Below are positions 34,945 through 61,482 of a stretch of DNA of 64,000 nt, one piece after another (positions within the stretch are counted from its first letter, which is position 1; each line of letters opens with the position of its first letter). The position numbers were made by a program, and so were the translations under genes. This DNA comes from Lytechinus pictus (taxonomy: Eukaryota), in contig NC_087245.1 of the NCBI RefSeq assembly GCF_037042905.1, positions 9,860,001 to 9,924,000 of the forward strand. Reading direction: 5' to 3'. The notes under the pieces are model-generated. The model was given only the letters and a program-made list of their open reading frames with translations. It was not told the origin of the DNA and did not search any database.

Positions 34945-37388
34945 TATATGGTGCACAATGATCTGAGAGTTAGACCTTCTGCTTGAGGACCAAGTGGATA
35001 ACTATACAATAGACTAAACGGGTTTATATTACTGATACTTTGATATTTAATTTTAAAGCTTAAAAAACAGTACTTGGTAATTAATGTATCCTCCAAGAAA
35101 TGCCATCAAACAGACATTCATAGACAAATTTACTTTTCATGTACTAACATCTCCACACACGTAACAACAATTGAGGATTTTTTTAAAGGCAGGATTTCCA
35201 CCTGGGTTCAAAGTCTAAGTTGACACAAATATCCAATTGCCTTGGTACTGGATCTTTCTCAAATAGAGACTTTTTTGATGAATTAAAAAATGTAAATGTC
35301 AACCTGTTAAAGGTTACCCTAGAAAAAGTTGGTTTTGATAAAAAGCAGAAAAAAAGTGCTGGAAGTTTTTGCAGAAATCCAGAAAGAGTGTTAAGTTGTG
35401 GTAATTTGTAAAGTTTGATTTTGATACAAACATATGCAAGCAGCTACAGTATACTATATTGTGAAATATTACTTCCATAAATCTATTTTTTTCAATGGTT
35501 CATGAAAATATTTTTCTCGTAGCAGCATGTATGAATTGTGTCTGGCAATATATTGAACAGGTAAAACTATTTTTAGTTTTCTAAGAAAATGGCATTTTAC
35601 AGAATTTATGTCATACGACATGGAGAAACTGTCCGTATATGACTTCATATAATATAAACTTAAAAGATCCATAACTCTAATTGTCTCTTCATTTGAGACA
35701 GTTACATACAACAGCTCTATCCCACTTTTCTTTCTTCATGTTTTTTACTCAGCGTATAGAAATGCCTCGGCAGTGATATGCGCTATACAAGCACAGTCGT
35801 ATTATATAAAAACGACTTCACAGGTGGGTGAAGTTCCCCTTTAATGTACTGTCTGCTCTACCTTTGATTACATTGTACTAGACACTATAGTGTGGTAACA
35901 AAACAATTTTCAATGGTTTGAAATCATCCTGGTTCTTTTCCTCGTTTTCGAGGGATATAGAATGTATACAGGAACAACTGGATGTTAGCATATATAAGCT
36001 TCATGTGTTGAAGTGTTTTGTCTGTTGGAAAATGAATTTGATATTGCAAAAACAAAAGACCACTTATGTGATTTCCTATTACTCCTATTGATTGATGGTA
36101 CTTGGCCAGGTTACGAACCAAGCAGTGAGTCTGTCATGTGAACAATGAAAAACAGTTTATCATTTGATGTATTAACATTAAAGGCAAAGCTCAAGCTTAG
36201 CACCACTGTTCAATCCCTCTTTTGAAATGATTACCGGTTAATGAATTTTGTCACTGAATTTATGGCGTTTACAATCCTTAATCAAGATTAATTTCAGAAG
36301 TAAGCAAATTTAGCATGGATTCAATGCAACATGTCAGCTAAACATTATAAGAGAAATGTATGATACCTGGGGAGGTATTCAGGGATAACTATCATAAATT
36401 TTGTCATGAATTTTGTCATTTCTTTTCGAGATGAGTGATCGCTATGATTGTCACAAATCGGTATTCTAAAGATTGTCTCTTCTCTGTCATATCTCTTAAA
36501 GTTCCCGCCCATCTTCCCACTGACAAAGGATTTCTAAGAGAGAAAAGAAAAGGAAAGTGTGTATGGCCTCACTACTTGTGGTATGAAAATTATTTTTGAA
36601 AATAGTCATGGAGGATGAGTGAAACATATACAATAATCTGATCTAAACAATAGCATTGTGTGCTCAACATATAGTCATCATGGCATCAGGATATTATCAT
36701 ACTTAAAGAAATCACAAAATTTATGACTGCTAGATCCTGTCATCAATTTTATCATGTCTTTTGCCTGAAATAAATTATGCGATTTTATGAATTCACATAT
36801 TTTTGTGTGCGCTGTGGAGAAGAGACAAAATTTATGACAATTTTGATGACAAAAGTTATGACATCCACCAGAATACCAATCTGTCTTATCTCTAAAAAAA
36901 AGATCAAATATTGAGAAAAGTCAACGTTCAGAATACCGCTCCCATATATGAATATATTAGGCATAAGCCAGGTAAAAAGCAAATTATTGTTTTTAATTCA
37001 TTGCGGTGACTAGCATGTAGCCCCACGGAGGGAGGTGATGTATTTTTTTTCATGAGGTGATCATGGAGCCACACTGAACATTATGAACTATCAAAATCTT
37101 AAATCCAAACAAAACAATGAGAGACTGTAATAATTTAATCATATAATTTTGGATTTTTTCAGGGGGGGATACTTTGCATGGATATATTCAAACATAATTC
37201 TAATTTTAGAAAATATATATATTGCAACTTCAGTTCACTGCAATTTGAAATGGCTAATAATATTCAATTTATTTGTTACTTATGAGCAGCTCTGTGAAAT
37301 ACAGCTAACTCAAGTCAAATCTTTTGAGACCACAAACATTTGTTTTGACTATTATTATGAGAAGAGGACAAAACATGTTGTTAAATTA

Positions 37389-38180
37389 TGCCCTGTTGCA
37401 TAAAAGTTTAATTATGGTAATTTTGCTATCCAATGGTAACTACCATGTGGAGCGTTGTGGCCCAGTGGATTAGTCTTCTGACTTTGAAACAGAGGGTCAT
37501 GGGTTCGATTCCCAGCCATGGCATAATTTCCTTCAGCAAGAAATTTATCCACATTGTGCTGCACTCAACCCAGGTGAGGTGAATGGGTACCCGGCAGGAT
37601 TAATTCCTTGAATGCATGAGCGCTGAAAGGCAGCTCGAGCTAAAGCCGGGGTAATAATAATAATAATGCGCCTCGGAATAGAATATTTCTAGATAGATGG
37701 CACTATATAGATGCCTATTATTATTATTACCATGGTAACGCTGACCACCAACCAATCAAAATCAAGGATTTCATACAAATTGCCATTGGATGGCAAAGTT
37801 ACCATAATGGTAACTTTTATGCAACAAGACCCTGGTGGGTGTTTCATAAAACTGTTCATAAGTTACATGTACGAGCAACTTTAGAAACGACTGGTGATCA
37901 TTTCTTGTGATAAATGATATACACCAAATTTTCAATCATCTTAATTTGGCACCCAAGAAGAGATCACCAGTTGTTCGTAAAGACCCTCGTAACTTACAGC
38001 CATCTTTATGAAACACCCACCTGGGGACCGTAACACAAATATTTGCAATCAAATGCTTAATACCAATGACCCATCAAGATCATTGTTGCATGCACACTCT
38101 GTTTAAAATACTGACTGGGAGCCAATCAGTGCGGTTCTTTCATATTTGCAATTCATCACAAACCTTTGTGTTATAAGACC
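37389..38180. mobile_element. Chain of three abutting palindromic MITEs (about 37389-37831, 37835-38020, 38024-38180)
   Basis: Each has inverted ends; they are separated or terminated by CTG at 37832-37834, 38021-38023 and 38181-38183. Confidence 0.7.
37448..37727 (+). mobile_element. tRNA-derived SINE inserted into a MITE
   Basis: A box TGGCCCAGTGG, anticodon-like arm TCTGA-CTTTGAA-ACAGA, B box GGTTCGATTCCC, central domain, (TAT)n tail, TSD TACCATG (37441-37447, 37728-37734). Confidence 0.88.
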
Positions 38181-38506
38181 CTGGTTTAAAAATTGCTTTG
38201 ACTTATGGAAGGTCGACTTGGGCAAGATTATCTGTAGTGTACATCTGGGTCTTGAAATCAATTCATACAGCTGATTTGATCTTTCAACAGAAGAATACAG
38301 TAAAATGAATATACTAACCTATTTTTTTACAACTATTCCTGATTAAAATATTTTCATACCATTCAATTTGGATTTTGTTTACTCATGTGAATCTGATTTA
38401 TGAAAGATAGTCTATGATCTATAGAATTCATTAGAATACAGTCAAATGTTCACTACACAAAAGACAAATTAAAACAAGATGAAATAATAGAGAGACACTT
38501 AACATA

Positions 38507-38512
38507 TTTATT
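38507..38512 (-). terminator. Candidate polyadenylation signal of the tetraspanin (about 3-kb 3' UTR)
   Basis: AATAAA on the minus strand followed by U/GU-rich sequence; other candidates exist. Confidence 0.4.
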
Positions 38513-41500
38513 AGTAGTCATATAGTGTGAAATTAATTCCTGGAGTATAAATGACCAAATAGTTAAAGAAAATATGTCGCATCTGACATTTTTAAAGGGA
38601 TAGTATGCCCTCCTGATATATATATAATTTGTATTTTTGTATAAAAGTATGATATATAAATCTGAAGAAAATAGATCACATCATTTTGTGAGAATATATA
38701 AAATTTGTTTTTGAGTGATACGTTGTGCAAATTTACCAACTGTTCGATGTTTATTTCAACCCAGACATGTACATCAATTTGGTCAAAATATAACAAGAGA
38801 TAGGGAAGTGAGGTTCACAGCATTACCTTCAAACATAATACATCTTACTATAAAAAAGAAAGACATCTTAGTGACCAAATAAATTCCTTGATTATAACAC
38901 TTCACTTCAATGACAAAAGGGGTCTTTCACATTGGTAAACTGATGTACTTCATATATTCAAATTTCTTCTGGGAAATACATTTTGTATGAGTCTTGGACA
39001 CTGTTGGAGAAACCATGAAATTAAAGTTTTAAATGCATTCTTCAAAAACACATCTTTCTGGACAACACTGACTGAGTTGAAAATGAAATGAAAAATGCAC
39101 TGCCAGGAAACAAACCAGCTTTTGACAGAATTACAATCACGATCATATACCGTACATACGACCAGCTACTGCTTTAATACTCAATGCACACATTACAAAC
39201 AGGTCTACAAATGACTTTCTTTCAATGCACATATTTAGTAATCTACCAATTTCTTTGAAATTCTCTGGTCATCGTGATCAAAACAGTGCAGAAAAGGAAA
39301 CAAGTGTGTTCAGTTGCACTTCAAGACTACAGATAGTTTCACTGTCCTCAATATATATTTCCACATTACAGTACTTGTACATTCTATCCACATCACTTTA
39401 CACGTACATGTATGCAATACACCAACTAATTATGACTAACACTGTAGTTTTGATACGACTTACCATTCACAGAAAATTAACAAAGTTTAGAAACTTCAAT
39501 AACAGAAGTTGGCATAGAATGAGTTGACTTGTACTAGTAGATGGGAAGTATTATGTAAATTGAAGATAGCATTGCTAATGTACATGTAGATCGTAATGGC
39601 ACGATGGCATTTGAAAATGTTTACTGAATGATGTATACATGTAAAATATAAAGAATATCACTGGTTTTGGAGTCTATTTGCATTAATTACTGAAGTAAAT
39701 TGAATGTACATGGAAACAGTGTAAATTACCTATTTAAAGCTAATATATTAATAAATGATGCAATATTTACTGTAGCAGGTACTATGCTAACGTTACGTTT
39801 TAAGGATTAATGAACGATGTGGTTTTGTGAAACAGCACGAAATGATGCTAAATATATGCTGGTATAGAAGGGTGATGTCTCATTTCACAGAAAAGTGCAA
39901 AGTACATGTACATCCACGTACAAGATATAAACCTTTCTTATATGCATGCACATATATTCTTTATTGATTGTGATGACTTGAACATGTTTATGATGCTGTA
40001 TTCCTGTTACAATATTAATCTTAAGTTATCAATATAATACCCCAGACACTGCAGTATACAATGATGAATGATGAATTTGAAACCGATTGAAACCAGGTGC
40101 TACTTTCAATGTATCAACTGTCATATCACACTTGGAGATTGCAACAGATGGTGTACCAACATGGTGTGTATGTATTTGTATACCAGCAGAATATATCCGT
40201 CTATGGTCATAAGATGTATGCATGTAGTTTATACTTCAAAGTACTGTGAGTTTAGTACACATCAGAGAATATTAATTTACATTTAACAATGTTTAAAGAA
40301 GTACTGACGTGAAGAGTACTATACTCTCTTGTTGATTGAGATAATGTGAGACTTTTATAACAAAATTGATATTTCCATGACATTCATGGAAACTAAATTT
40401 GTAACATGCATGCTTCAAGCACAAATGACAAATTCCATGTATTTTACACAATTCTACCAGATTTACAAATGCACAATTATGAAGCTTATCCACTAGAAGA
40501 ATCACATAGCTTTGTAATGTCTAATACATGACATTATTCCCCTTTGATCTTCACAAACATTGGAAAGGGCCTTGTTCATATATCACAAAAAGAAACAATT
40601 AACTTTTACCGCTGATTTGTAATGTTTAGTGCATGATTTCACATAGACTTACAATTACTATTCATGGTATAGTCAATTGTATCTTACATGTACAGAGCCA
40701 AGATTACTACAAGTTATCTAATAGAAATATCTCTCTAGCATCATATGTAACATACATACTGTACAAGACATGACAAACTTGATATCTAGAAGTATTTTAT
40801 AGACATAAAGTGTACAAGAATAAAGAAAAATATGGACCTCGTTGAGATTCTATCAGACATGAAAAATAATTGAATTATAACTTGATTTAAAAAACTAGAA
40901 TGTACATAAAGATTTAACTAATTTCAAACTCGTTTATAAACCTTCTCTTATGAATTACTAAGCATAAACCTTTTCCCCACAGTCCCACACATCCTTGGAA
41001 ACTTCTTTTCCTACATTTCTAACACAATTTACTTTATGTCCAATTTACATAGAATAGTCTTGTAGTGTTCTCTTCCCTTCATTTATTTCACCCAATTATA
41101 AATCAACATTATAAACAAAAATAATCTGAAAATATGTCATTTATACTTTACACTTTCAAAATTCTTAAGTTATTTTCCTTTAAATTATTAGCATAATACA
41201 TACAGTAAACGATGTTCAAGAAAAAAAATCTATCATATCTCTTAACTTATACAAAATGAAAATGATAAAGTTTAATAAATAGATGACAGATCAGGAATAA
41301 ACATTCTAAGCCTTTTTGAGCAGTACTGTATACTTTATAAGCCTTCTTATATGATTAAAAAAAAAATGTTATAGCATGTTAATAATAAGACCAATAAGTT
41401 TTTATGCTAATCTCTCTAAACATCTTAAATTTCTCCCTCTGTTCGACTCAATAATGTAATTTTTATAAGATTGAAGGTTGAGGATGAGATCAAGGAACAA

Positions 41501-41536
41501 AGCCCAAAATAAATCTTTTACGATGCACATCTAACC

Positions 41537-41626
41537 CTAGGTACCTTGATTGGAGCTTTGAACAACCACCACATAGGGACCACTAACATACCTCATCAAA
41601 CAACATGCAAATGCAATTCCAAAGAT
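41537..41626 (-). CDS. Tetraspanin alternative terminal exon 6b (IFGIAFACCLMRYVSGPYVVVVQSSNQGT*)
   Basis: ttttgtttcag acceptor; the first 12 codons encode the same residues as 6a; TAG at 41539-41537. An internal AG|gtatgt donor is also possible. Confidence 0.8.
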   Translation of the reverse strand: MFGIAFACCLMRYVSGPYVVVVQSSNQGT

Positions 41627-44600
41627 CTGAAACAAAATGATAGATATCATCATTACTTTGCTAGTATTAATTATATACACCAATAATCCCAGATCATTCT
41701 TATTTTGTATTTCTTAATGTTTATGACTTATAAAATACTATTAACATGTGAGTTTTCAAAACCAAATGAGATACAAGATTAAGTTATAAAGGTGGAGGAT
41801 GAGATGAATGATTAGCCATCTTAAACCGTCTCATATTCGCCTTTAACAACCCTCATCAAACAGCAAGCAAATGCGATTCCAAAGATCTGTATTAAAATAG
41901 AATGATAGAAACCAAAATATATATAATGATGAATCAGGAAATAAACCATGATTAGTAGTACTATTCCCGTAGTCAACAAGGACCCTTCCCGAACCACTTG
42001 TATTAGTCCATATATATTGTAATGTTCAATATGAGCCCACACTAAAGTTTTCATCACTGGCAGGTTTTTATTCATTATAGCAACAGTGCTTTTCATCTTA
42101 GCAAAACAAAGGATATCATAAATATCATCTGTGGGTAATTTGTTACATCCTTCAGAAAATGGAAGCACGGAGGGTTCTTTCACAGACAACACCTAAAATC
42201 TATTAAGAGAGATCACATAAATTTCAAGAGATTCGATTGGTCTACCTCTTATTCATATTGATATAAAATATGTTAGTGAATAATACAAGGGTCCAATAGA
42301 ATGAAGAAAAATATGACAGATTAAGTATGAAATAATACTTTTTACAAATACAAGTCTGTAAAAAATCCACATCTCAAAACGTATTGCACATACCGGTAAT
42401 CATACTGCAAGGGTAATACTTGAAACTTGGTAACACATCCCCAAAATTAGTTAAATAAATATCACATAATCAATCAAGTGTTTCATTGCCTTTGTCAATG
42501 CTAAGCTGAACATTATACAAACCAACTTTAACATTTAAATTGAACAATGATAATAGAATGGCATATTTTCAAAACAGGATATGTACCCACCTCAATGACA
42601 GCAATGGCAATGGCTACTCCAGCTATAATTCCAATATTGCCAATCAGAAGATCTTTGAGTGCGGGGTAGCAAGCCTGAAATATCAAATAACACATCAGAA
42701 AATAAATTTCCACATCAAATGGATAATCATCCAATAGATGTGTCAGAAAAAAAAAACTTTCAACACTTTCTTGGGGAAAAATACCAAATCAGCAATAATA
42801 GAAAAATAAAAGTACATCTTATCAGCATTTGAATGCTACCTTGATGATATTTCTATGATTTAGCACTACTGAACACCATTGTTTTGAAAATATTTAGCAA
42901 AATTGCATTTGGTTCATTTGCAAAACCAACACAATGGAATTGAATTTAAACAGAAAATTGATTGTATACTAAAGGTTTTCTCAATAAGATTTTTTGTTGT
43001 TCCACATCTGCCCTTTTCAATAGCCTTTATATTCAAATTTGAAATTCTCGACTGATTTTCACATTCAGGTTCTTAATGAATTCATGCACAAATTTATGAA
43101 AACCAGTTTTTTAAGCATGATAAAAAAATTGATGCCATACATGTAGGAATCAAATAACGATTTCTCTCAAAACAAAGAATTCTCACAAAGGTCCCAAGGA
43201 CCATGTTACAATTTCCTAAACCTACTCTAGACGAATTATTAAGACAATACCTAATCCATTCCATAATTAGCTACCCAGACAAAAGCCAAGGACTGAATTT
43301 CAAAATTAAATGTTACATGTAATATCTACAATGAAATAGACACGTATCACATCCACTATATTCATTATTCAACACTTGATAATCTCTTTATCTTGTTGAC
43401 AACTAAATTCTCTGAATTCCTTTTGCTTACAACAGAGACCACTAGGTTCACAAAGAAAACAGGTTAATACTAGACCATATAAAGCTTACTTCTGTGTAGA
43501 TATCAAAGTTAGTTGATCCTGGTACGTTGCAGTTTGAAACAGAAGGTGACTTGCAGCATGATTGGGGAACCATGTTGGGATTCGAAGCGTTATACCCCAA
43601 CCAGTCAGTGTAGTTATCCGATCCACAGCATTCCAACTAATACACATACAACCATCGACACAGGGGGGAAAACAAACCATTCAAATACAAAATGAAGGAG
43701 CTGAAAGGTTTTTATTAGACTTACGTAGACATGTATTTTACGTTCTGCCACAAACGGATCGCGCGACACATCACTGTTACAGCCTTCTAGCATTGTAATA
43801 CAGCATGACATAGGTACCACGTTGTAGCCAGCTGTGTCGTTAAAGCCAAACCATGAAGTATAGTTGAGTGTTCCACAGCACTCCAACTGATGGGTTAGTG
43901 AAAGCAGGTATTTGCAGAGTAGGATGGATGCGAGTATGAGGAGAGTAAATGAGATGCGAGATGTATTATGGGTTAAGAGTGAAAAGCATGAGACTATATG
44001 AGAAAATGTTAGAATTCTGGTTAATTTTCAAGGTTGCAAACCAGACCTTGACACACTATCCTGCACTATCACTGGATCATTAAAAGCTCCAGACATGCGT
44101 GTACATTCAATATTTTTTGTTTTGAAAATTTACCCTCCCTATCAATAAATGCTTTTTTTTTCTTCGCTTGTTTATTTTGTGTCTGATGCTGCATGGTCTT
44201 TCCCAAAAAGTAATTGATGAAAATGCTCAAACATGTATAAATAATGAACATACTGATAAATGTCAAGAAAATCTGTACTCTGATCCCATTCAATGTGTCA
44301 AGCTCTGTATATTCTAAATTATGCAAAATCACACAACAACAATTAGAAAATACATACAAATATTTGGTGATATAAATGAATTACGGAGAGTTTTAGAGAA
44401 AAAAGAGACATGTAGAAAGAAATATACATGATGTGGAGCAAATTTGAAATGTAATTTCTTGAATTTAGAGTAACAAGGGGCAAACTTCTGTATATTATCA
44501 TCTCTGAAGATGTGTAAAAAAATGACATGTACATGTAGTCCAGGAAAAATAACTGATTTTGGGGGTCAACCGCAAACAAATTGCAATATAATTTCTTTTA

Positions 44601-47600
44601 CCACAATGCATTTTCCTGAAGTCCCCAAAATGACATACTAAAAGTCCAGAAAAATCCCAGTAGTGGAAAGACGTCTAATTTGCATAAATCCAAAATGGCC
44701 GCCAAATTTTCAGAAAATTTGAATTTTCGTACATACATTTTGACATGAACATTTAATTGCCACAAAATTAGTGTCATATGAAAGAAAAAAAAATTCCTAT
44801 AATTTGGTACTATTTATAGGGGATAAATAGATAATTTGGCTGAGATTTTTTAGTAGAAAACTGCATTTTTGTCATTTTCCCCAAAAATTGAAAATTTTGG
44901 AAATACATTATTTTATATAAATCTAAGAAAAATGGAGCAATTACCTTGAAATGTTCCAGAAAACTTTAATAATATACTATTATCATGAGGATGCAATTCT
45001 AAATTGGTGTCATTCTTTTAAACAAATTTATAAGGTATCAAAGTTGACTATTCAAATTTCACAAATGTCGCGTTTTGTATGCATTTTCGTACACTAATAT
45101 GTATAACGTATCTAGTGTATACAGTACAGTAGTTAAAGATTGTATGCATTTATATACGCTTTTTAACCACTTAGTTAAGATTAGGCTTTTCTTTATCAGC
45201 TACATAAAAAGGGCTGGCACATTGACGTCTACCCCTCTCAGGCATGTCAGGGGGCTGTCAAAGTCACGCCCTCTGGCTATATCATGTTGTACAGTGTGTA
45301 TCAAAATTAACGCAACCACATTACGTTCCAAATTTGTGAAAAATTTGTTAGCTTTATAGTCCAGGAAAAATGACTGATTTAGGGGGTCAACCTCAAACAA
45401 ATTGCACAAGAATTTTTTTAATGCAATGCATTTCCTTGAAGTCCCCCAAATTTCATACTAAAAGTGTTTTTAAAATCCATGTAGTGGAAAGACGTCTTAT
45501 TTGCATAAATCCAAAATGGCGGCCATCGCAAGAATTTTCAGTAATGATTACAAATAATAGTGCAAACACTTGTCTGATCTAGCACTTTAAAAAAATTATG
45601 ATTAAAGCATTTACCTTTCACCAGTGTTATATCTTACCATAGGCTTCGTCTTAAAATTGGGATGCAAGTCAGATTTGGCCTCTGCTGACCTCTAGAGGTC
45701 AATGACCTTAAGGTCAACGACCTCAAAATATCAGAAAATTGATGTTTTGCATCATTAGCTCATGATAAATATAATAATAATGCAAACAAAATTATCATTC
45801 AATATTGACTTTCAAGGTAACCTGATATTCTAGAAAGAATTTTGTGTATTATAAATGTTGACCTTTGACCCTGGACCACTGGAAAAGGTCAATAACATTA
45901 ACATATTACAATATTGATACTTAGCATCAGTGGTTTATGATAAACAGGCCTCTCGTGAAAAAATTGCAATATAATTTATTTCAGCACAATGCATTTCCAT
46001 GAAGTCTCAAAAATTACATACTAAAAGTCCAAAAAAATCCATGTAGTGGAAAGACATCTAGTTTGTATAAATTCAAAATGGAGGCCATCGTGAGAATTTT
46101 TATTTTTACAAATAATAGTAAAAACACTGGTCTGATCATAGCACTTAAAAAAATAATGATAAAAGCATTTAACTTTCACCAGTGTTATATCTTACCATAG
46201 GCTTCATTTAAAAATTCCAATGCAATTCAGATTTGACCTCTCCTGACCTCTTGAGGACAATGACCTTAAGGCCAATGACTTAAAAGTATTGATGTTTTGC
46301 ATCCAGAGTTCTTGATTAGCATCATGTTATATCAACTTGTGTTTGAAATTTGAGGATCTCTAAAGAAATTTGACCTTAAAATGTAAAAATATTGGTACTC
46401 GGCATCACTGGTTGATATGATAATGTTTTGAGGTAATTGACCTTTCACTTTCCTCAGCAGTCAAATGTTGAGATCTGCAAACTTTACTCAAATAATCAGT
46501 TAAAAATACCAAAACCATATCATCTGTATAGTTGTAAGTTTGTAACGCTAGGGGCACGTTTCATAAAGAGTAACTTTGCCATTATGGCAACTACCATGGC
46601 ATTAGGGTTCAGCAGCCAATCAAAATCAAGGTTACCATGGTAGTTGTCATAATGACAACGTTACAACCTTTGTAACTCTTTATGAAACGGGTCCCATGTC
46701 TGTTTTGGCTAGTACATTCCTGACTGAGGTTAGAGCATTGGGAGGTTTTGAAATGATATCTGAAATGCCTCAATTATTTTTTTGCAGTTATCATCTATGT
46801 ACACTACCCGAGAGACTTGCAAGTTTTCCCATCTAGATTGTAACCTGGTGTAGTTGCTCTTTAGAAGGGAGATGCAGCTTACCACGATGCTGGTTGGCAC
46901 TGCACTTCTCTTCCCGTAACTTGCATAATGGTGACTCTGTCAGAGGTTGGGCAGAATTAAAAATATGTTTCCTAGATTTTAGGCTTTTTCAACTAGTTTG
47001 GCATCATAGATTTGATGGACGCTATGTCTTCGCTGAGAGCTCTGTGGTATAGCTACTGATCTGCGTATATCAGATGGGAAATACCTGACAGGACATACAG
47101 ACTCTTCACATTCTTTGGCTTTAGATAGCCTGTGATAGTCCCACAAGTGTTGTCTAGAGGTAGACGTGTCCAAGACAGCACATGCATACTCTGTAGCAGA
47201 GTATTGGTGGAGGAGTTTGTCAGTTCCGGAGAAGGTTATTATGGATCCTCACTTTCCACCTTCACTCTTAATGTGACTGATAAAGGTTGACACCAAGATA
47301 TATTGCATGGTCGCAGTGCTGGAATGGAATTCAAACCATAGGTTTTTTTTAGTTTCCTCATAGCATGATGATTGTGGGGATGAAACAAGCTAACCTTGGT
47401 CTTTAGGTTTGAAGACTGGACTCAAGCAAGAACACTACCCTGAGAGAGTCGGTTCTTTTGAATTCTTTACCTGCTGGTCTTCCTGTTGAGCTCCATAAAG
47501 AGATGTCTGTTTTATAGTAGAAGTTTGATAAGTTTGGTCAGATGATTATCATCAATGATTTGTATAGTTGTACGAGTAGACCACAGTATCAGATGCAGCT

Positions 47601-50600
47601 GCTAATTCAACAAAAATTTTCTACACCCGTTAGTTAGTTACCGGATTAAGTCGGAAGTCCTCAGTGAACTGAGTCTGGTTGAGAACCTAGCTTGTATATT
47701 ATTTCCAAAGTTAAAAACCAGCCTGGTTAGGAATATGATATGTTGTTCTATAATGGGACCATTTATTTTTTAGATGAGATGCTCAAGTAGCTTGTAGAGA
47801 TATCAGAAAAGGGCGATTGGCCTGTAGCTTCTAGGCACATTTGGATCTTTCCAAGGTTTGAGGAATTACTTTAGCCTTCCTCAAAATTTCTGGGAGATGG
47901 GACTGTGTAGCACATTGTTAAACAGGCTGCCATTCTTAAGTATGGAAGCTTAAGATGTTCATATAATCATCTCGTCATGTCTACATCTCTTAAGGAAAAA
48001 AGATAAGATGACGAAATCTCGGATCTCGTCTTGTCTACATCCTGCGGGAGAGATGATCATGTGACAAGATCTTGGATCTCGTCATGTATACATCCTGTAA
48101 GAGAGATGATCGATGACAAGATCTGGGATCTCGTCATGTCTACAACTCTTAGGGAAAAGGATAAGATGACAATATCTTAGATCTGATCATCTCTCCCACA
48201 GGATGTAAAAATTGCGAGATCCAAGATCTTGCCATCTGATCATCTCTCACACAGGATGTAGACATGACGAGATCTAAGATATTGTCATCTTATCCTTTTC
48301 CGTATGTAGACATGACGAGATGATTAAATGAACATCTGGGTGGCAGATCAAAATGTTTCATTTACTCAGAGTGGTGTCACCGAAGCGTGCTGCCTTTCCC
48401 TTCTTTGTTCCTTCAGTTTCAATATCCAGGTGAAGTCTCCATTGGACTGGTCCCACGGAAGATATCCACTTTGGTGTATCTTGTACTGGGTTGTTCTATT
48501 CAGCAGAAGCTGGATAGTAAACTAGTTAAGATCAATATTCTAAATAAATTGATCTTTGAAAGTTTCAGGGTTAAAGGTCACAACTTATAATACTCGCAAA
48601 TTTTCTCATGTATCAAGGGACCTTATAAGTTAACAAATTATTATGATGCAAAACATAAATTTTTATGATATTCCGACGTCAATAATCCTTTAGGTCATTG
48701 CCTCTAGAGTTCAGCACAGGTCAATTCTAAATTGCATCCGATTTTTAAAATGAAACCTATGATAAAATTTAACAGTGATGAAAGTTTAACGCTTTAATCA
48801 TATTCTTAGTGTTATCATCAGACCAGTGTTTGTACTACTACGATTAATCATTTTGGATTTATGCAAATTAGATGTCTTTCCACTACATGGATTTTCTGGA
48901 CTTTTAGTATGTCATTTTGGTGACTTCATGGAAATGCATAGTGCTCAAATTAATTGTATTGCAACGTTTACACTAGAAGCCTGTTCATAAATCAGAGATG
49001 CTACGTGTCAATATTCTAAAATGTTAAGGTCATTGACCTTTTCCAGCTCTCCAAGGTCAAAGGTCAAGACTTATAACCCACCAAATTCTTTATAAAATAT
49101 CAAGATACCTTGAAAGTCAATATTGAATCATTTTGTTTTCATTATAACCATATTTATTATGTACTAATGATGCAAAACATCAATTTTCTGATATTTAGAG
49201 GTCATTGACCTCTAGAGGTCAACGGAGGTCAAATTTGACTTGCATCTTGCTTTCAAAATGAAGTCTATGGTAAGATATAACACTGGTGAAAGTTTCATGC
49301 TTTTATCATAATTTTTGAAAGTGCTATGATCAGAACAATGTTTGTACTACTATCAATAATCATCAAAAATTCTTACGGTAGCCGCCATTTTGGATTTATG
49401 CAAATTAGACATCTTTCCACTAAATGGATTTTTCTGGACTTTTAGTATGTCATTTTGGGGACTTCATGGAAATGCATTGCGTTGAAAAAAATTCTATTGC
49501 AATTTGTTTGCGGTCAAACCTTATTTTTCCTGGACTAATGTACACTAGTGCAACATTACAAATATACAACTAGCATGTATGGCTGAAACTTCAATGATAG
49601 TTATACAGAAATTAATCTCAGGCATCAACATCCACACAAATAATGTACGTACAGTATGGGCAGTACGAAACGTATGTACATGCACGTACATGTACATATA
49701 TAATTCAGAATGCTATATCATTTGGCAAATTGATTTAATGAAAAGAAAGAATACATTATCCAAAAGTTCTGTGAAAATCAATTACAAAAGCATGAAAAGT
49801 CTATTTGTTATTAGAATTATCAGATTTTCTACATGTACACACTGCCCATTTTTTTGTTTCTGAAGCACCCTTTGTACGTTGCATGTTCAGGCAAAATTTG
49901 GTGTAGAAACGATCGTTCTAAGGAAAGATATTGAAGAAAATATGCTGTTAAATTCCATTGACGCCTATGTACAAGTAAATGACAAACACACATTACTCAT
50001 TTACAACAAATTATACTTTTGTAACTTGCTTCCTTTTGCCAAAGTATGGCAGTACTGTACACATATCTTTCAAAGTGCAGCATGTCTAACTCTAACCGAA
50101 AAATGATCATGGGATATGTTTATATTGCTCTCTTCCAAAAGAGTCAAATAGCTTCTTAAATGTCAAGTCCACCCAAGGAAAATGTTGATTTTAATCAATA
50201 GAGAGAAATCAAAAGAGCATAACACTGAAAATTTCATCATAATTCAATGTAAAATAAGTTATGACATTTTAAAGTTTCATTTATTTTTTAACAAAACCAT
50301 TAGATGCACAACTCGGTGATATTCAAATGAGAGAGTCACTGGTGTTCCTCACTATTTCTTTTACTCTTGATTATTTGCATTGAATAATATTTCTATTTTT
50401 ACAGATTAGACATAAAGATCAACTTGACTGAGCCAAAAAATGTTAAAACAATGATTATTCCACATTTCCAGGGAGGTATAAAACTTTTGTTTCACATGAC
50501 AATGAGAACAAAATTACATAGACTGTATTTCATATAATACAATACAAAAGAAATACCGGTAGTGAGCAGGTGATGTCATCAGTCCCCTCATTTTCATACT

Positions 50601-53600
50601 GACCAGGATGTGAATATACTGTACAATGTACATGTAACTGTTTTGTGAATTTTCAGTGTTATACCCGTTTAATTTGTCTATTTTTATTCAAAATAATTTT
50701 TTGTTAAGGTGGAGTAATCCTCTTATATAACATTAACATGCAGAAAATCTGAAAATTGTAATATAGAACAAATAGTTCATTATAGCCTGGTTGCCATCTT
50801 GAAAAAAAGTGCCAATCGGTGATGATCACTTTTACTACATGTACATTACACTCTAGAAATTCAAATGAGACTTACAAAATCATAACTTTCTCATTTAAAC
50901 CAATGTTGATGGAAGAACCTTTTTTTTTCTTTGCTTCTCTCTATCCCCTAATTTCATGCCCATTTGATTTATAGTGAGTTAACATGTACATAAATATTTT
51001 GTTAAAATGCATTAACAATACATGCAGTACAATGGAGCGCAGTGCATACAATTGCAGGGTGATTGTATGAACACTATTAGCAGACAGCAAAAGTACAAGG
51101 CGACTTTGAATAGGAAATATTGCACAACAATGGGGGGGGTTGTATGGTTTTGGATATTGGATAATAAGATAATTAGTTCAAATTGCCATTCCCCATTTCA
51201 GACACAACTCTGATCAGATTCCTTACATGTACCACCACCAAAAAAATATATATAAGTAATGGAACAGATGCTGAAAATATAGTAATTACAAATCACATGT
51301 ACTGAATGAAAGCCTATAATGGGATTTTAAAAAATCAACAGATAATCAGGTATAAGTACATGTATGCATGCATTCATAAAGTACATGTACAGTACATGAT
51401 GTGCAGTGTAAAACATATATATATTTTTTCTCTCTCTCTCTCTTTTGGGGGGAGGGGGGGGGGCTAAAATTAGTACAAATAAGTGAAAAAGCACAACAGC
51501 TTATCAAAGTGCATTACATGTATATGAAAAGGGGATAAAGGATGGCAGAAAATTAGCATGCATGGTATTAAGGTGACAGAAAAGACAGTTAGCATGATTT
51601 AATAGAGAACTTTGAGTAAAATTCGAATAAAATGGCACTTGATTAAATGAAATCATACACAATACAGGTGATAATTAGCTATTTAGAGTTTTGGGGATAG
51701 TTAAAATGGCCTATTTTATATGAATAGGTGTACTACATGTAGCTGATTGAAAGTAAAAATGATTTTAAAATAATTTTCCTCTGCTGATGTCCTGGGGCAA
51801 TGTAAACCAAGATACGAAAAACAAATTATGAACAGGAACAGAATTAGAATAAAGAAATGATGTACAATGATACCAAATATTCCAGCTGTAACAGAGTGTG
51901 TACATGTACCTCCTATTGCACTTAACTAGGAATGGCATCTGAAATCATAATTTACAGTGTATACAAAATAAAATATCCAATAAAATGTCAAAAAGGAAAA
52001 TGTTCAGTAACTTTTGGAGGCATGATTAACCAAATTGAGAGAGCAATAAAATAAATATACAAATTAAAATTAAATTGAAAAATAAGGAGAAAATCAAGTA
52101 AAATATATACGTATAGAGATACTGTATAAATCAAGAAAACGAATGGAGGATAAAAATACATGTAGAAAATTCAAGTTCATATCCAGAACTGTGTCACATG
52201 CATGTACATGTACATGTAGTCTATTAAATGTCTGTACTGTATTAAATACATACTGTACATGAAGGTCCATACAGTCACTGAATCCATGATATGATAGAGT
52301 ACATGCATACATGTAATATGGAATTCATCTAGACTTTATGTATGGTATGTTTTGAACAAAGAAGAACTGGGTTGGTTTGTTGTCACAGAACCTCTGAGCA
52401 CTTTGGTAAATAAACTCATTTCTATGTGTGACTCTTCTATTTAGATATAGCATATTGCAAGCCTCTAAAGCAAGGGCACAATGTAGAGATCAGGGAGTGG
52501 TGACAATCACAATATATGAATAGAAAATACAAAAATACAACTTGTCAAAGACCGTATTTGAGGACCGATGAGCATCTGAATTTCTTAATACAAAACATAA
52601 ACATTTGGCTAAATGAAAAATGCTCTGCTTGCATTTGTGACTAGCACAGTGAATTAATTTTTAATAAAGCACTTACTGTATGCCCATGACAGGCAAATCA
52701 ATATAGCAAGGTTTATAGCTAAATTTAATCCCACACAACTACAATTTCTCTTTTTCCCTTTTTATTGATTTATTTGCATCAATTGCTTTGATATCTGACT
52801 CATTCACTTTGGCGTTAATAAAGTATAGACATGGATAGTATCAATTAGAGTTGGTATGGCGAGTAGGGTGAATTGAGAAAAGACATGTTTTTTTCTGAAG
52901 CAATCTCATAAATTATGTCATAAAATATTATGAATATATTTTCATCTATCAATAATTTAAATATACATTTCCGAAAAGAAGGTACACCTTGATAAAAGGA
53001 CCTTGTTAGGGTCTAGTAGAATCCTTTCAATTCCTCATATCCTGGCTTCACTCCTGACCTTTTCTACCAAGGTCATATTGTGGTCTTGTATATATCTGGG
53101 TAGATACCAAACTCTTCTATAATGGAACAAATTCATATCAGAAGTGAGAGGAAAACTTTGGACTGAGAAATGATCTGTGATGACATCCATTCATTTGTTA
53201 AATGGGCTTTTAGACTTCAATAGAGGCTTAGAAATCTACATCATCTCAATTACCGAAGGATAAGATCATTTTTAAAGTGCAAGTAAACAATGGTATCGGG
53301 TGAAAATATCAAAGAAATGGGCCTTCCTAGTTCCCACATCATGCACTAGAAAAAAAAACATGCACAGGTTTCCTTTAAGTGTCACAGACTGGTCAAATGA
53401 GTTCAGTAGTAAATATCACTAGGTCGGGTACTTACGTTTTTCTGCATGTTATCAAAGAGATCTTTCGTTGATTCACTTTCGTTATAAGTCTGTTGGAGTT
53501 CAGACATGTTGTCGTCGATCAGGTTATCAATGTCATCACGTTTAACATAGCCAGAGATACCAGCCGCCAGTTCCAAGATCAGGAGAAGAACCATGATGAA

Positions 53601-56600
53601 TGCAAACTACAGTGTGAAATAATAAAAATAACAGTGTATCAAATTACAGCCATCATACACACGCAAGCTATCACAGTACATGTGACTAGCTGGGATCGGC
53701 TGTCATATGATATCCATACACGTACAGAATTATTGGCCAATAGATGTGTAAATCTAGGATTTTTTTTTCCTGAAAGACACAGGTACCCAAATAAATATGG
53801 ATGATTCCATGGTCAGTCACATTATGCTACTGCATGTCTTTTCTATTACTTGATGCTGTCAGTTTTACAGGGGTGAGATTTCCTGTCAAGTTTATTATTT
53901 ATAAGTTGTAAAATTGTGCAGAGACTCATGCTAATATTTTTTTTCATTCAGTTGGCATAATTCAATAACGGAAGGACGCAAACAAGTAAATATTTCATTA
54001 ATAATCGCTAAAACTATAATAAAGGTCGAATTGAGTAATTTTTCAGTAAAGCAAGAAATCATATTTGCTATGTTTTTAAACAACCAGGGGGAGTTGCATA
54101 GAGAGTTTAACAGCAAGTCAAAAATATCAAGCACAAGTCCAGAAAGCATGCCTTTGATTGCTTAAAAATCATGTTGCTTGTGATTTTTAGAGTTGCGTTT
54201 GGTAAAATTCTTTCTGCAATGGGCTACAGGACCTTCACGCATTATACTGTACATGAGGGTAATGATGAAAACATGATTACAGTATTGAAGTCCAAGAGAA
54301 GAAATTTGATAAAATCAGGATAGTTTCCTTTGAAACAAATTTTATTAGAAGCACCAATTCGAAAAAAAAAACAATGTAATTATAACAATCAAACAACATG
54401 TGTACTAACCGTTGCCAGCATGCAGTAGTTCTCCTTGACTGCTCCGCAACATCCAAAGAATCCAGTAAGGAATATGAAGACACCAATACAGATGAGTGCT
54501 ATAGGGATAGCTGTTCCTGTATTACCGGTGAAGTCTACATACTCACTGTACAAGGTCAATGTCAAACTTCCTCCGATTATGATACCAAGACCGAAGATCT
54601 GCAAAAAAAAAGTATGAGAAGAATGTTATGGTATTAAAGGGAAGTTACATGTATAATCACAACCTTCCTATTTTCACTGCAGTCACTTTCAGGATAATGC
54701 AACGATTATTATGATTAAAATTTAAAATGAGGGAAAATATACATGTACATGTAGACAGCGAGTTGCATGAAACATCTTCAGTATTTGATGCTTTATAAAA
54801 AGGGATGACAATAAAACAAAACAAAACATGGCTGACAGGCACTAAATTTCTCCATATTTTAGGTTAAGGTCATTTTTCCGCAGGCACAAGTACAGGAAGT
54901 CAAGAAGACAAGAAAATTCTGGAATAAAGGGCAAAAATGACCAATGAAGTACATGTCTGTACATGTAGGCAAGGTCAATCAAAAGGATACTTGTGGCCTT
55001 GAATGTATCTAAGCCATGATGCTGAAAATAATCAATTAGCCAAATTGGAAGAAAGTGCGGCACTACACATGCAATATACAGTACATGTCAAAAATGAGGA
55101 TAGTGAAAACAAATAGTATTCACATGAGGATGATTACGACAATGATAGGCATTTCATTATATACTGCCATCTACAGTACATGTATCAAGAAATATTCTAT
55201 TCCAATGAGCACAGGAAAAATGGACAAAAATAAAAGTTTGGATGAGTGTCATAGTGCCAAAAATTGATAACATAAAATATAATACTCCAGTTTACATTTA
55301 ATGATTTGATATTTCTATTTTAATAGTAAATTTATTCCAAAGAAAAGGTGCTGGGGAAAAGGAAGCTAATTCAGGCTACTCATGTAGGGGTCTTTAGAAG
55401 CTCTTGTGATGATCTCAGGCTACGAGCTGGTACATATATATACAAACTAACTACACATTGTCGGGTTCAAGAAGGCTGAACTCTGTATCACCAGACTTCA
55501 AAGGGTTCATGAATATCACATGACATTGGCAGTTGGTACAAACACAGGCTTTTAACAAAAACACATGTACATATTCTACAGTATTGTATGTGAAAATCCT
55601 CTTATTATCCTTGGCAAAGATAATCTGAATGTTCTGGGTCATGCTGCATGCATGTTTATACAATTTTAAATCTATTTGCAAAAACAACAATGAAGGATTC
55701 CTTCTCTCTTTTTTTCCTTCCATTGTTTGTATTTTCAGGAAATCAATAAAGTCTGTTATCCGTTATCCATGAACAAACAACATTATCAGATGGTCAGCAG
55801 ACATCAGATTGACCTTAAACAATGGTCAAGGCCTTTGAATACATGTAATGCATACAGTAAAATAACATGAGATTCCTTAAAATATTTATCAATAAAGATA
55901 CCTATTTTCTGTGACTTCTAATGAGCACCTTTACTGCTTTTTTTAGAAATAGGTTATAATAATTATTATACATATTCAATTATACAGCAATCTTTATCAC
56001 ATACATTGATATCACTTGTACATTTTAGCTTAATAATGTCATTGAAAAATCACTGACAAAAAGCTTCATGAGATGCTCCTCTGACTGGGCAAAATATCTT
56101 CAGGTTTGATGAACAGTATACATTCGTTGTAGCAAATATGTTCATGTAGCAAACATAATTAAAAAGTAACCTTCCCAAGTCATGCTTGAATACTTGCATG
56201 CATTGTAGCACAATAAGCAGTCATGGATGGTGTACTTTTTGCTAATTACATTGCAAATTACATGTATGAATATGGGTATGGGTGTGTTGATGTGATAGCA
56301 GCCTGTTATGCACTTGAGGTCTCATATTTTATGCTAGTCACCGAACCAAACCTAAGTACCAGCACTTAAATTTAGCAGCCATATCATTTTATAGGGATTC
56401 GTCCTTGATTCCAACTGCAAAACATCTCTCATGATCATATCCATGCTACTTTACAGTACTGGTACATGTATCGATGTACATGACCTGCATAAAATCATGC
56501 GTAGTGGCTCTAAATGCAATGCTTTCTGCATGCGTTAATGCATGTACACCAATTATAAAGGCCATGAAATTTATAAACTGTCAATGGATAGGTGGACTTG

Positions 56601-59600: not shown

Positions 59601-61482
59601 AAAGCTACGCACTCAATTTATCATGCAAAGAAAAAGTATTTCCTGTGCCTAAACTTCTAAATAATGTTCATATTCTTATAGGAAAATATGGAATCAAAGT
59701 GAATATAACTCCAAAATTCCAAACAGTTGCTGGTTTTCTCTGTAGCTGTATTTAGCGATTTATTGGCTTTTATAAAATAGGTGTATTATTTCAAGCATCG
59801 CGATTGGCCAATACGCGTCACATGACATCCAACTTTTTGGGTGCACTGCACTACAATACAGTGCGCAACGAAAATTGACATTGCACGCTCAAGCAAACCA
59901 ATGCGGTAGAAGTCCCGGGAGAAGTCCAACAATTAGATATGAGAAGTCAATTTTCACCAACTTGCCCCACTGCCTCCTTAAACTTTTTGAAGCATGAATG
60001 AAGCAGACAAAATTAGAAGATGGACCTGGAAGCTCGACTGCTAATTCAGCATTCTTCCAGTATTTGCGGTAAGGTACATGTAAGGTAAGACTGAACTGTA
60101 ACTTTTTAAGAATTTGTTTCTGTGTTGCTATTTTATAAAACAAGTAATGCACTTGCTCTGTCGTGCGTAAAAGTAAATGCAGAGAAAGCTCGGTTTCTTC
60201 AGATGGTGCACACTTGGCACTCGCCGCCAGCGGCTCGTGCACAGTGCGGCACCTATCTAAAGAAACCCCGCATACCTTTCGAGGTATGATTTGAAGGACT
60301 GTGTGGAATTGAGGTTTTTTATTCCTGGTGGGAGATTGTTCCAGTCTTTTTATTGGTAAAAAAAAAACTCCTCAAAAACAGACGGCTGCAAGCTGTCTAC
60401 GACTGGTACTGGTAGTGGTATACCCAGTGGTACTTTAGTCATGGTTGTGTGTCCGGACGGGTTGTGTGTACGGACGGGTTGGGTGTCCGGACACATGATT
60501 TTTACTCTCAATTTTAAAAAGTTTACAAGCAATGTCTTTAATTCTTTTTAGCACAGAATCTAAGAAAATATTATAAAGAACAAATATTGATGGTGAAAAA
60601 AAACTATTCAACCTATATTTTTGGTTTATTCCTGAGATAAAAACAAGGCTTCATTTCTGTTAACTTTAACGTTAGTGTTACGTGTCCGGACACCCAACCC
60701 CCCACCCTAGCCAGGCGGCTTCTAGAGAGTAAAAATCATTTACTAACGTAAGGTCACTCTCATGAAGCCAGGGCTTCCGTCATATACTTTTGTGTGTACC
60801 ACCAAAAAACCTGAAACTTTCGCCCCCGAGATTTCTACTTTCTTTCTAAAAGATCTAGCCCTAAATCATGTACATGGGATAAAACTTCATTTCCGACATT
60901 TCTACGCTCTCGTTGTTATTTTTGAACAAGAATTCATCAAAAAAATGAGAGAAATATTGTGTAAAGACGGAAGAGACTTGCCCGATGTTTACGCCGCCAT
61001 CTTGTTTTCTATTGTTCTTCCCCAACGTTACCCGACGCACGCGTCTGTAACGTTAGCGAAGAACAATAGGAAACAAGATGGCGGCGTAAACATCGGGCAA
61101 GTCTCTTCCGTCTTTACACAATATTTCTCTCATTTTTTTGATGAATTCTTGTTCAAAAATAACAACGAGAGCGTAGAAATGTCGGAAATGAAGTTTTATC
61201 CCATGTACATGATTTAGGGCTAGATCTTTTAGAAAGAAAGTAGAAATCTCGGGGGCGAAAGTTTCAGGTTTTTTGGTGGTACACACAAAAGTATATGACG
61301 GAAGCCCTGGCTTCATGAGAGTGACCTTACGTTAGTAAATGATTTTTACTCTCTAGAACTTAGAAGCCGCCTGGCTACCCCACCCTACGTTACTTATAAA
61401 CGTTAGATCTAACGTTACTTACGAAAAATATGAAGTTAAAGAAGAACATCAAATATTTGATGCATTTTGCCGATCCTTCCAT
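41537..61482 (-). CDS. Tetraspanin, 6-Cys EC2, CD63/TSPAN7-like; 6 coding exon positions with duplicated alternatives at positions 4 and 6
   Basis: Exons 61482-61423, 54598-54410, 53606-53436, [43886-43725 or 43636-43490], 42674-42591 and [41886-41821 or 41626-41537], all phase 0 with GT-AG. Four TM segments, KCIKYLMFFFNFIF, GFFGCCGAVKEN, CCG, PxSCC and a C-terminal YxxPhi. Exact orthologue not assignable by eye. Confidence 0.95.
41821..41886 (-). CDS. Tetraspanin terminal exon 6a (IFGIAFACCLMRVVKGEYETV*)
   Basis: tacag acceptor, TAA stop, terminal YxxPhi motif. Confidence 0.93.
   Translation of the reverse strand: MFGIAFACCLMRVVKGEYETV
42591..42674 (-). CDS. Tetraspanin exon 5 (ACYPALKDLLIGNIGIIAGVAIAIAVIE)
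   Basis: tttcag acceptor, GAG|gtgggt donor; last EC2 Cys and start of TM4. Confidence 0.95.
43490..43636 (-). CDS. Tetraspanin exon 4b, variable EC2 (LECCGSDNYTDWLG...VPQSCCKSPSVSNCN...DIYTE)
   Basis: tattag acceptor, GAA|gtaagc donor, 147 nt open, 5 Cys. Confidence 0.92.
43725..43886 (-). CDS. Tetraspanin exon 4a, variable EC2 (LECCGTLNYTSWFG...VPMSCCITMLEGCN...KIHVY)
   Basis: catcag acceptor, TAC|gtaagt donor, 162 nt open, 5 Cys. Confidence 0.9.
44536..49537. mobile_element. 5-kb composite non-autonomous DNA transposon, Academ-like (TAG..CTA ends, 3-bp TSD ATG)
   Basis: TAGTCCAGGAAAAATAA ... TTATTTTTCCTGGACTA with ATG on both sides; a second left end at 45357; about 1-kb diverged inverted arms (45357-46430 vs 48560-49537); no intact ORF. 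Confidence 0.75.
47964..48326. mobile_element. Foldback-like MITE built from about 57-bp internal repeats, nested in the 5-kb element
   Basis: TAATCATCTCGTCATGTCTACAT ... ATGTAGACATGACGAGATGATTA, with repeated GATCTCGTCATGTCTACA units in both orientations. Confidence 0.8.
53436..53606 (-). CDS. Tetraspanin exon 3 (FAFIMVLLLILELAAGISGY...LFDNMQKN), TM3 and constant EC2 helices
   Basis: tgtag acceptor, AAC|gtaagt donor. Confidence 0.96.
54410..54598 (-). CDS. Tetraspanin exon 2 (IFGLGIIIGG...GFFGCCGAVKENYCMLAT)
   Basis: ttttgcag acceptor, ACG|gttagt donor. Confidence 0.96.
57275..58227 (-). mobile_element. DINE-1/HINE-type (Helentron-associated) element with an internal tandem array
   Basis: Subterminal IR GTCTCACCTGCAT (57297-57309) / ATGCAGGTGAGAC (58210-58222); five 147-192-bp units starting CARGATGTTCAGT; (GCC)n microsatellite; terminal stem-loop; A/T-run flanks. 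Confidence 0.75.
60708..61377. mobile_element. 670-bp near-perfect palindromic element with TAG..CTA ends and an 8-bp TSD (hAT-like MITE)
   Basis: About 315-bp arms, apparently identical except a 7-nt insertion near the right end and a few central mismatches; CCCCACCC at 60700-60707 and 61378-61385. Confidence 0.92.
61423..61482 (-). CDS. Tetraspanin exon 1 (MEGSAKCIKYLMFFFNFIFF)
   Basis: caaaATGG start context, TTC|gtaagt donor, canonical tetraspanin N-terminus and TM1 start. Confidence 0.93.

Follow-up and report, generated by a model that had tools for sequence, protein, structure and literature searches.

The window analysed here is a stretch of 64,000 nucleotides (nt) of Lytechinus pictus DNA (contig NC_087245.1, positions 9,860,001 to 9,924,000), and its minus strand carries a tetraspanin gene with a duplicated last exon. 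The gene is the one named "CD63 antigen-like" in the RefSeq annotation of this species, as its exon-3 peptide is 100% identical to the annotated protein; the same peptide is 79% identical to orthologues of Strongylocentrotus purpuratus (6 matches among 29 candidates). On the minus strand, the coding part of exon 1 (61423..61482, MEGSAKCIKYLMFFFNFIFF) is followed by exon 2 (54410..54598, 189 nt), which runs from the end of transmembrane segment 1 (TM1) to TM2, and by exon 3 (53436..53606, 171 nt), which encodes TM3 and the start of the large extracellular loop (LEL). The CCG motif and the variable part of this loop are encoded by either of two alternative exons, 4a (43725..43886, 162 nt) or 4b (43490..43636, 147 nt), the latter being that of the main mRNA. 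Exon 5 (42591..42674, 84 nt, ACYPALKDLLIGNIGIIAGVAIAIAVIE) has AG/GT borders and supplies the last LEL cysteine and the first part of TM4, and its donor feeds either of two last exons, 6a or 6b. Matches to the tetraspanin profile PF00335 (Pfam) were found in three of the seven exon-bearing frames of the minus strand, and the joined protein covers the profile from end to end, both in its 6a form (198.8 bits, E 1.3e-58, profile positions 1-223 of 225) and in its 6b form (199 bits, E 1.1e-58), with a cut-off of 32.1. Hydrophobic stretches are visible in the protein, and the large-loop motif LECCG...SCC...C...C is present in the 4a and 4b versions alike.

Four isoforms are predicted by RefSeq in L. 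pictus and four in Lytechinus variegatus, with lengths of 251 (X1), 246 (X2), 243 (X3) and 238 (X4) amino acids (clusters at 90% identity). The exons of the window, when joined, reproduce all four L. pictus isoforms exactly: X1 combines 4a with 6b, X2 4b with 6b, X3 4a with 6a and X4 4b with 6a. The proposal of a first-pass annotation of this DNA, that both copies serve as terminal coding exons, thus agrees with the RefSeq models of both species, and its question whether relatives keep the 6b frame can be answered for the congener L. variegatus, in which the frame is the same and the tail differs from that of L. pictus by a single Q>E change. The alternative 6b tail is therefore already in public annotation, as RefSeq predictions in two species. 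A search of literature titles and abstracts found no paper on a duplicated alternative last exon in sea-urchin or other tetraspanins.

The anatomy of the duplication was confirmed. On the minus strand, two acceptors lie 260 nt apart (...ttttaatacag|ATC at 41886 and ...ttttgtttcag|ATC at 41626), and each opens a copy that starts with IFGIAFACCLMR, just as had been annotated. The coding part of 6a (41821..41886), used in X3 and X4, consists of this common start followed by VVKGEYETV and TAA, while that of 6b (41537..41626; acceptor tatcattttgtttcag), used in X1 and X2, continues with YVSGPYVVVVQSSNQGT and TAG, so that the divergence of the two tails was correctly described. With 6a chosen, the 194-nt spacer between them (41627..41820) is part of the 3' untranslated region (UTR); with 6b, it forms the end of an intron of 964 nt. 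Codon by codon, the 36-nt cores are identical at 33 of 36 positions, and the three differences (ATC/ATT, GCT/GCA, TGC/TGT) are all synonymous, as the earlier reading had it. The score of this match (z 15.4) was reached by none of 500 shuffles. The repeat search returned a 75-nt ungapped direct repeat of 77% identity at a spacing of 260, and as it is accompanied by two flanking islands of similarity (20/23 identical between 41474-41496 and 41789-41811; 16/20 between 41630-41649 and 41895-41914), the duplicated unit must have measured at least about 125-175 nt. The core peptide occurs twice in the six-frame translation of the window and has two matches in the 812-Mb genome, with no third copy in either. 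Pyrimidines occupy 13 of the 17 positions from -20 to -4 at the 6b acceptor versus 11 of 17 at that of 6a. The two copies are thus homologous and arranged in tandem, and both possess an acceptor and an in-frame stop of their own, which makes them a tandem-duplicated terminal exon of a tetraspanin gene (PF00335, E 1e-58), in accordance with the initial claim.

The tails differ in how they end. That of 6a, ...MRVVKGEYETV-COOH, places a YxxPhi motif at the extreme C-terminus in the manner of CD63, TSPAN6 and TSPAN7, and S. purpuratus keeps an end of this type as NEYETV; in 6b, the motif YVVV is internal and the protein terminates with -QGT, so only 6a has the C-terminal arrangement. A tyrosine nevertheless stands at the homologous place in both (GEYETV in 6a versus GPYVVV in 6b). 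Class I PDZ ligands have the form x-S/T-x-Phi-COOH, which is fitted by the -E-T-V end of 6a and not by the -Q-G-T end of 6b. Because the 6b sequence ends in -QGT, the C-terminal PDZ-type ligand is lost in it. The first-pass annotation had proposed that 6b removes the terminal ligand and moves a YxxV motif to the interior of the tail; the loss of the terminal -ETV and of the C-terminal position holds, while YxxV itself is kept, as YVVV, at the homologous tyrosine. Judging from these sequences, the ancestral tail, of TSPAN7/CD63 type and ending YETV-COOH, is that of 6a, and it is plausible that the use of 6b would change adaptor or PDZ binding, or sorting.

Differences between the copies are spread very unevenly. 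The flanks of 6a and 6b are no more similar to each other than shuffled sequences are, with z values between -0.5 and 1.9 (up100, -0.5; up51-150, -0.2; down2, 0.1), and the homologous 27 nt of the tail are identical at 16 positions, significantly fewer than in the core (Fisher p 0.0046). Within the core, there are three differences per about 7 synonymous sites versus none per about 29 non-synonymous ones (Fisher p 0.005), and the probability that three random core changes would all be synonymous is 0.007-0.014. The few and exclusively synonymous differences argue that the TM4-end codons of 6b are translated and constrained, and that purifying selection has acted on the peptide in both lineages. 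We take this as moderate evidence for purifying selection on the membrane-proximal codons of 6b, and thus for a constrained coding exon. Between the window and the corresponding sequence of a close relative (organism B), 21 of 666 positions mismatch over 41221-41886 (3.2%), and the 6b of this relative contains no insertion or deletion: the five listed gaps, which account for all 16 gap letters of its contig, lie outside 41537-41626. As the divergence of 6a from 6b is more than 10 times this 3.2%, the duplication would appear to long predate the split of the close relatives, a dating that is drawn from few sites. Both copies are kept in L. variegatus, a comparison that has little power at a divergence of about 3%.

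RNA evidence came from three raw stranded runs of one study bearing the same species label (X19, X20 and X21; about 6% of each, over 36200-56000) and from a contig set of organism B (X6) for the same region; statements on junctions refer to the 15 of 169 joints listed, for each of which reads and contig depth add up to 51 or more. All joints of the main mRNA are GT..AG on the minus strand. Exon 2 is joined to exon 3 (53606|54410) by 117, 135 and 52 reads in X19, X20 and X21, respectively, exon 3 to 4b (43636|53436) by 148, 188 and 71, exon 4b to exon 5 (42674|43490) by 105, 163 and 86, and exon 5 to 6a (41886|42591) by 89, 172 and 70, a total of 331. With 331 reads leading to 6a and no 6b joint among those listed, 6a is dominant. 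Coverage is confined to one strand and shows no break from 6a across the spacer and 6b to about 38.8 kb; the spacer itself is transcribed (depth 51-149 at 41651, 41660 and 41809), and in one X6 contig (depth 1254) the 84 nt of exon 5 are followed directly by 41886 and the sequence down to 41221, with no interruption. Owing to this continuous coverage and to the X6 contig, 6b can be assigned to the 3'UTR of the main mRNA. We thus conclude that, in the RNA examined, 6b is at most a minor isoform.

Changes of depth along X19 (87 at 41809, 51-59 at 41651/41660 and 90 at 41466/41473) were considered as a hint of additional reads spliced to 6b. This idea was dropped, as equal swings occur elsewhere; in X20, the depths at the corresponding places are 149, 62-71 and 92, and elsewhere in the UTR they range from 17 at 41356 to 133 at 40958.

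No AATAAA or ATTAAA is present in the 194-nt spacer. Such signals are found in the common downstream 3'UTR (38500..41536, minus strand), namely ATTAAA at 41276, AATAAA at 41087 and 39965, ATTAAA at 39178, and AATAAA at 38755 and 38512; over the whole window, AWTAAA has 312 matches versus 320 expected. Strand-specific depth in X19 is 17-56 from 41487 down to 38844 and 11 in 38183-38843. The prediction that both copies share a downstream poly(A) site is therefore upheld, since there is no signal between them and RNA coverage continues to the downstream sites. In the 3'UTR between 38600 and 41820 (about 3.2 kb), 28 differences are carried by all or nearly all RNA reads (about 0.9%, best-supported rows). 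None of those listed falls in the stretch that includes 6b (41474-41650), versus 1.5 expected, and this is not significant.

Taken together, we consider that 6b is probably a real alternative terminal exon, though a minor or condition-specific one. According to this proposal, the last exon of a CD63/TSPAN7-type tetraspanin gene of Lytechinus was long ago duplicated in tandem together with some of its flank, which would have given rise to 6a and 6b. Both would be able to serve as 3' terminal coding exons, their 3' splice sites would be rivals for the donor of exon 5, and the downstream poly(A) sites would be common to both. The proximal 6a would be the default, and 6b would then form part of a 3'UTR of about 3 kb. 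The distal 6b would be chosen, and 6a removed, either in a minor share of the transcripts or in tissues or stages outside the sample, and the resulting protein would have the same TM4 end and palmitoylatable CC, followed by the longer tail with its homologous tyrosine but lacking the C-terminal YxxV and -E-T-V. On this view, translation of 6b would reach a meaningful level. No convincing inverted repeat able to loop out 6a was found in 41400-42700, the best ones measuring 12-13 nt.

Several observations weigh against this proposal. The exon 5 to 6b junction (42591|41626) is not among the listed joints, so of the two junctions that had been put forward for comparison only that to 6a, with its 331 reads, is found in the list. 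If the joints are ranked by reads plus contig depth, 6b can have no more than about 50 reads versus 331, a share of about 13% or less and possibly zero. The selection test is built on three substitutions only. As for the 17 residues specific to 6b, an open run of 17 codons is expected by chance at 25-31% of positions in the UTR, and the congeners differ at one of the 17 residues, as would be predicted under neutrality (1.6 nt per 51 nt). By these comparisons, the 6b-specific tail is without detectable constraint, and the earlier suggestion that both copies are under selection is supported for the core, whose all-synonymous differences are unlikely to have arisen by chance, and finds no support in this tail. 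Searches for tails of the 6b type gave 5 matches among 16 candidates, none among shorter proteins and none outside Lytechinus, and the protein models of S. purpuratus contain only a 6a-type tail, ...KIKNEYETV. Moreover, the L. pictus RefSeq models may lean on L. variegatus proteins.

Much of this would be expected if 6b were a non-functional relic decaying in the 3'UTR, with an acceptor used as splicing noise and then annotated into X1 and X2. All of the listed exon-5 junction reads go to 6a, 6b lies inside a transcribed 3'UTR, the alignment indicates that the ancestral stop has been lost in 6b so that its tail reads into former UTR, this open tail is no longer than chance permits, and protein searches do not find it outside Lytechinus. 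However, if the flanks are a guide to its age, a copy drifting neutrally should have accumulated many core differences, mostly non-synonymous ones; with 30% divergence, three or fewer have a probability of 0.002, and with 40% one of 2.5e-5, and all three that are observed are synonymous. The acceptor and polypyrimidine tract of 6b are also intact, and the same models are found in two species. We thus regard a decaying relic as rather unlikely, although it deserves to be taken seriously.

One could also suppose that the cores are nearly identical due to short-tract gene conversion by 6a and not to selection on 6b. The copies do lie in tandem, 260 nt apart, and their identity is concentrated in one tract of about 40 nt which includes the CAG of the acceptor. 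Nevertheless, the three synonymous differences that remain correspond to about 0.43 per synonymous site, similar to the divergence of tail and flanks, which implies that the core is as old as the rest and has not recently been homogenised by conversion. Furthermore, the flanks offer almost no homology from which conversion could start, and conversion would not favour synonymous differences, which makes it a very improbable source of the match. It is scarcely credible, finally, that 6b is a 35-nt internal exon spliced to a further downstream exon. The motif AG|GTATGT noted earlier is indeed present within it as a putative donor of good consensus (41590..41592, minus strand, cut between 41592 and 41591), but the suggested check on its use found no joint from 41591/2 among the 15 listed, coverage is continuous 3' of 6b, no RefSeq isoform of either species uses this donor, and there is neither a third copy nor a further tetraspanin-like frame downstream.

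The last exon is not the only duplicated one in this gene. The CCG/variable-loop exon is also present as tandem copies, 4a and 4b, which are separated by an 88-nt intron and are both of phase 0 with AG/GT borders. Orthologous 4a and 4b pairs formed with S. purpuratus (35/54 and 31/49 identical) are closer than paralogous pairs (21-25/48), and this duplication is thus older than the split of Lytechinus from Strongylocentrotus. In RefSeq, 4a and 4b are used one at a time, 4a in X1 and X3, while only 4b joints, and none of 4a, are among the joints listed. Returning to 6b as a functional exon, a bolder version can be put forward tentatively. Here, 6b would be a second tail kept by selection, many times older than the split of L. 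pictus from L. variegatus, and would drop the C-terminal YxxV/PDZ signal in an unsampled tissue or stage; combined with the older 4a/4b pair of the partner-binding loop, this would give a 2 x 2 set of proteins differing independently in outside binding and inside sorting.

Some additional observations concern exon 4a and the surrounding DNA. One contig of organism B (1100 nt, depth 31.7) runs from the 4a donor (43724), beyond which 29 letters align elsewhere, through 4a and its acceptor to 44469, and then covers 49538-49797; it may represent a minor transcript with 4a and an unspliced or alternative upstream part. In S. purpuratus, a model of 298 amino acids (P0005, metaclust) carries a 4a-like segment, distinct from the one in P0004, and a 4b-like segment one after the other; P0005 was either mis-joined in prediction or points to an additional copy or allele in this species. 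Repeat-like sequences at about 37440-38050 and at 46570-46610 have RNA depths of hundreds to thousands on both strands, with many mutual joints and hundreds to thousands of loose ends. ARAGORN found no tRNA gene in the former, and the two probably belong to an abundant expressed interspersed repeat, situated past the 3' end of the gene and in its large intron. In the intron of 9.8 kb that separates exon 3 from 4b, a joint of 50278 with 50649 classed as 'opposite strands' was found in all three RNA runs (108+164, 99+141 and 215+280 reads), which suggests an expressed inverted-repeat element.

Among proteins of solved structure, human TSPAN7 is the best match of the whole protein (E 5.5e-36). 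The alignment enters the tail, where CCLSRFITaNQYEM of TSPAN7 faces CCLMRVVK-GEYET of 6a, and the TSPAN7-like character that had been ascribed to 6a is thereby borne out by alignment with the human ...NQYEM(V) tail. The C-terminal YxxPhi motif of CD63, GYEVM, binds AP2 and AP3, syntenin is bound by both CD63 and Tspan6, and the PDZ-binding end of Tspan7 mediates its binding to PICK1 (PMC12203959). By its sequence, the Y-E-T-V-COOH of 6a would represent a C-terminal YxxPhi like that of CD63, and possibly a PDZ ligand like those of Tspan7 or CD63/Tspan6. Compared with TSPAN7, TSPAN6 and CD63, 6b has YVVV and nine more residues ending with -QGT in place of the C-terminal signal. A CD63-like structural group of tetraspanins has been described by its six-cysteine CC-CC-C-C loop and phase-0 introns (Garcia-Espana and DeSalle, PMC2650405). 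The gene studied here fits this group, as its LEL cysteines are arranged as CC-CC-C-C, its introns are of phase 0 and its internal coding exons are all multiples of 3 (189, 171, 162/147 and 84 nt); five coding introns were found versus six in the consensus.

If 6b is regulated, the sea urchin would possess a natural pair of tetraspanins differing only in the C-terminal sorting/PDZ signal, next to a second pair in the same gene which differs only in the variable extracellular loop. This would be a clean system in which the role of the tail in endosomal and exosomal routing could be followed, in an embryo that is easily injected and imaged. Otherwise, we deal with a routine tandem exon duplication, an ordinary case of a known kind that RefSeq has captured as X1-X4 in two species.

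Tandem-duplicated exons which are chosen one at a time are known also in the form of homologous terminal exons, with Drosophila pip and the 3' variable regions of PGRP-LC as examples, and duplicated exons can lie in UTRs (PMC9013439, PMC9741552, PMC8373072). The present gene resembles pip and PGRP-LC in having homologous tandem copies, and contains two such modules, 4a/4b and 6a/6b. Unlike them, it has only two copies per module, which the sampled RNA uses very unequally, and the search for a competing RNA structure found none. If the first copy is selected, the second remains part of the mRNA as UTR. In the tetraspanins CD82, TSPAN32 and TSPAN5/14, splice variants that arise at conserved intron junctions likewise alter parts of the protein (PMC2650405). 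As described there, however, those variants are exon omissions, whereas in this gene the choice is made between duplicated homologous exons.

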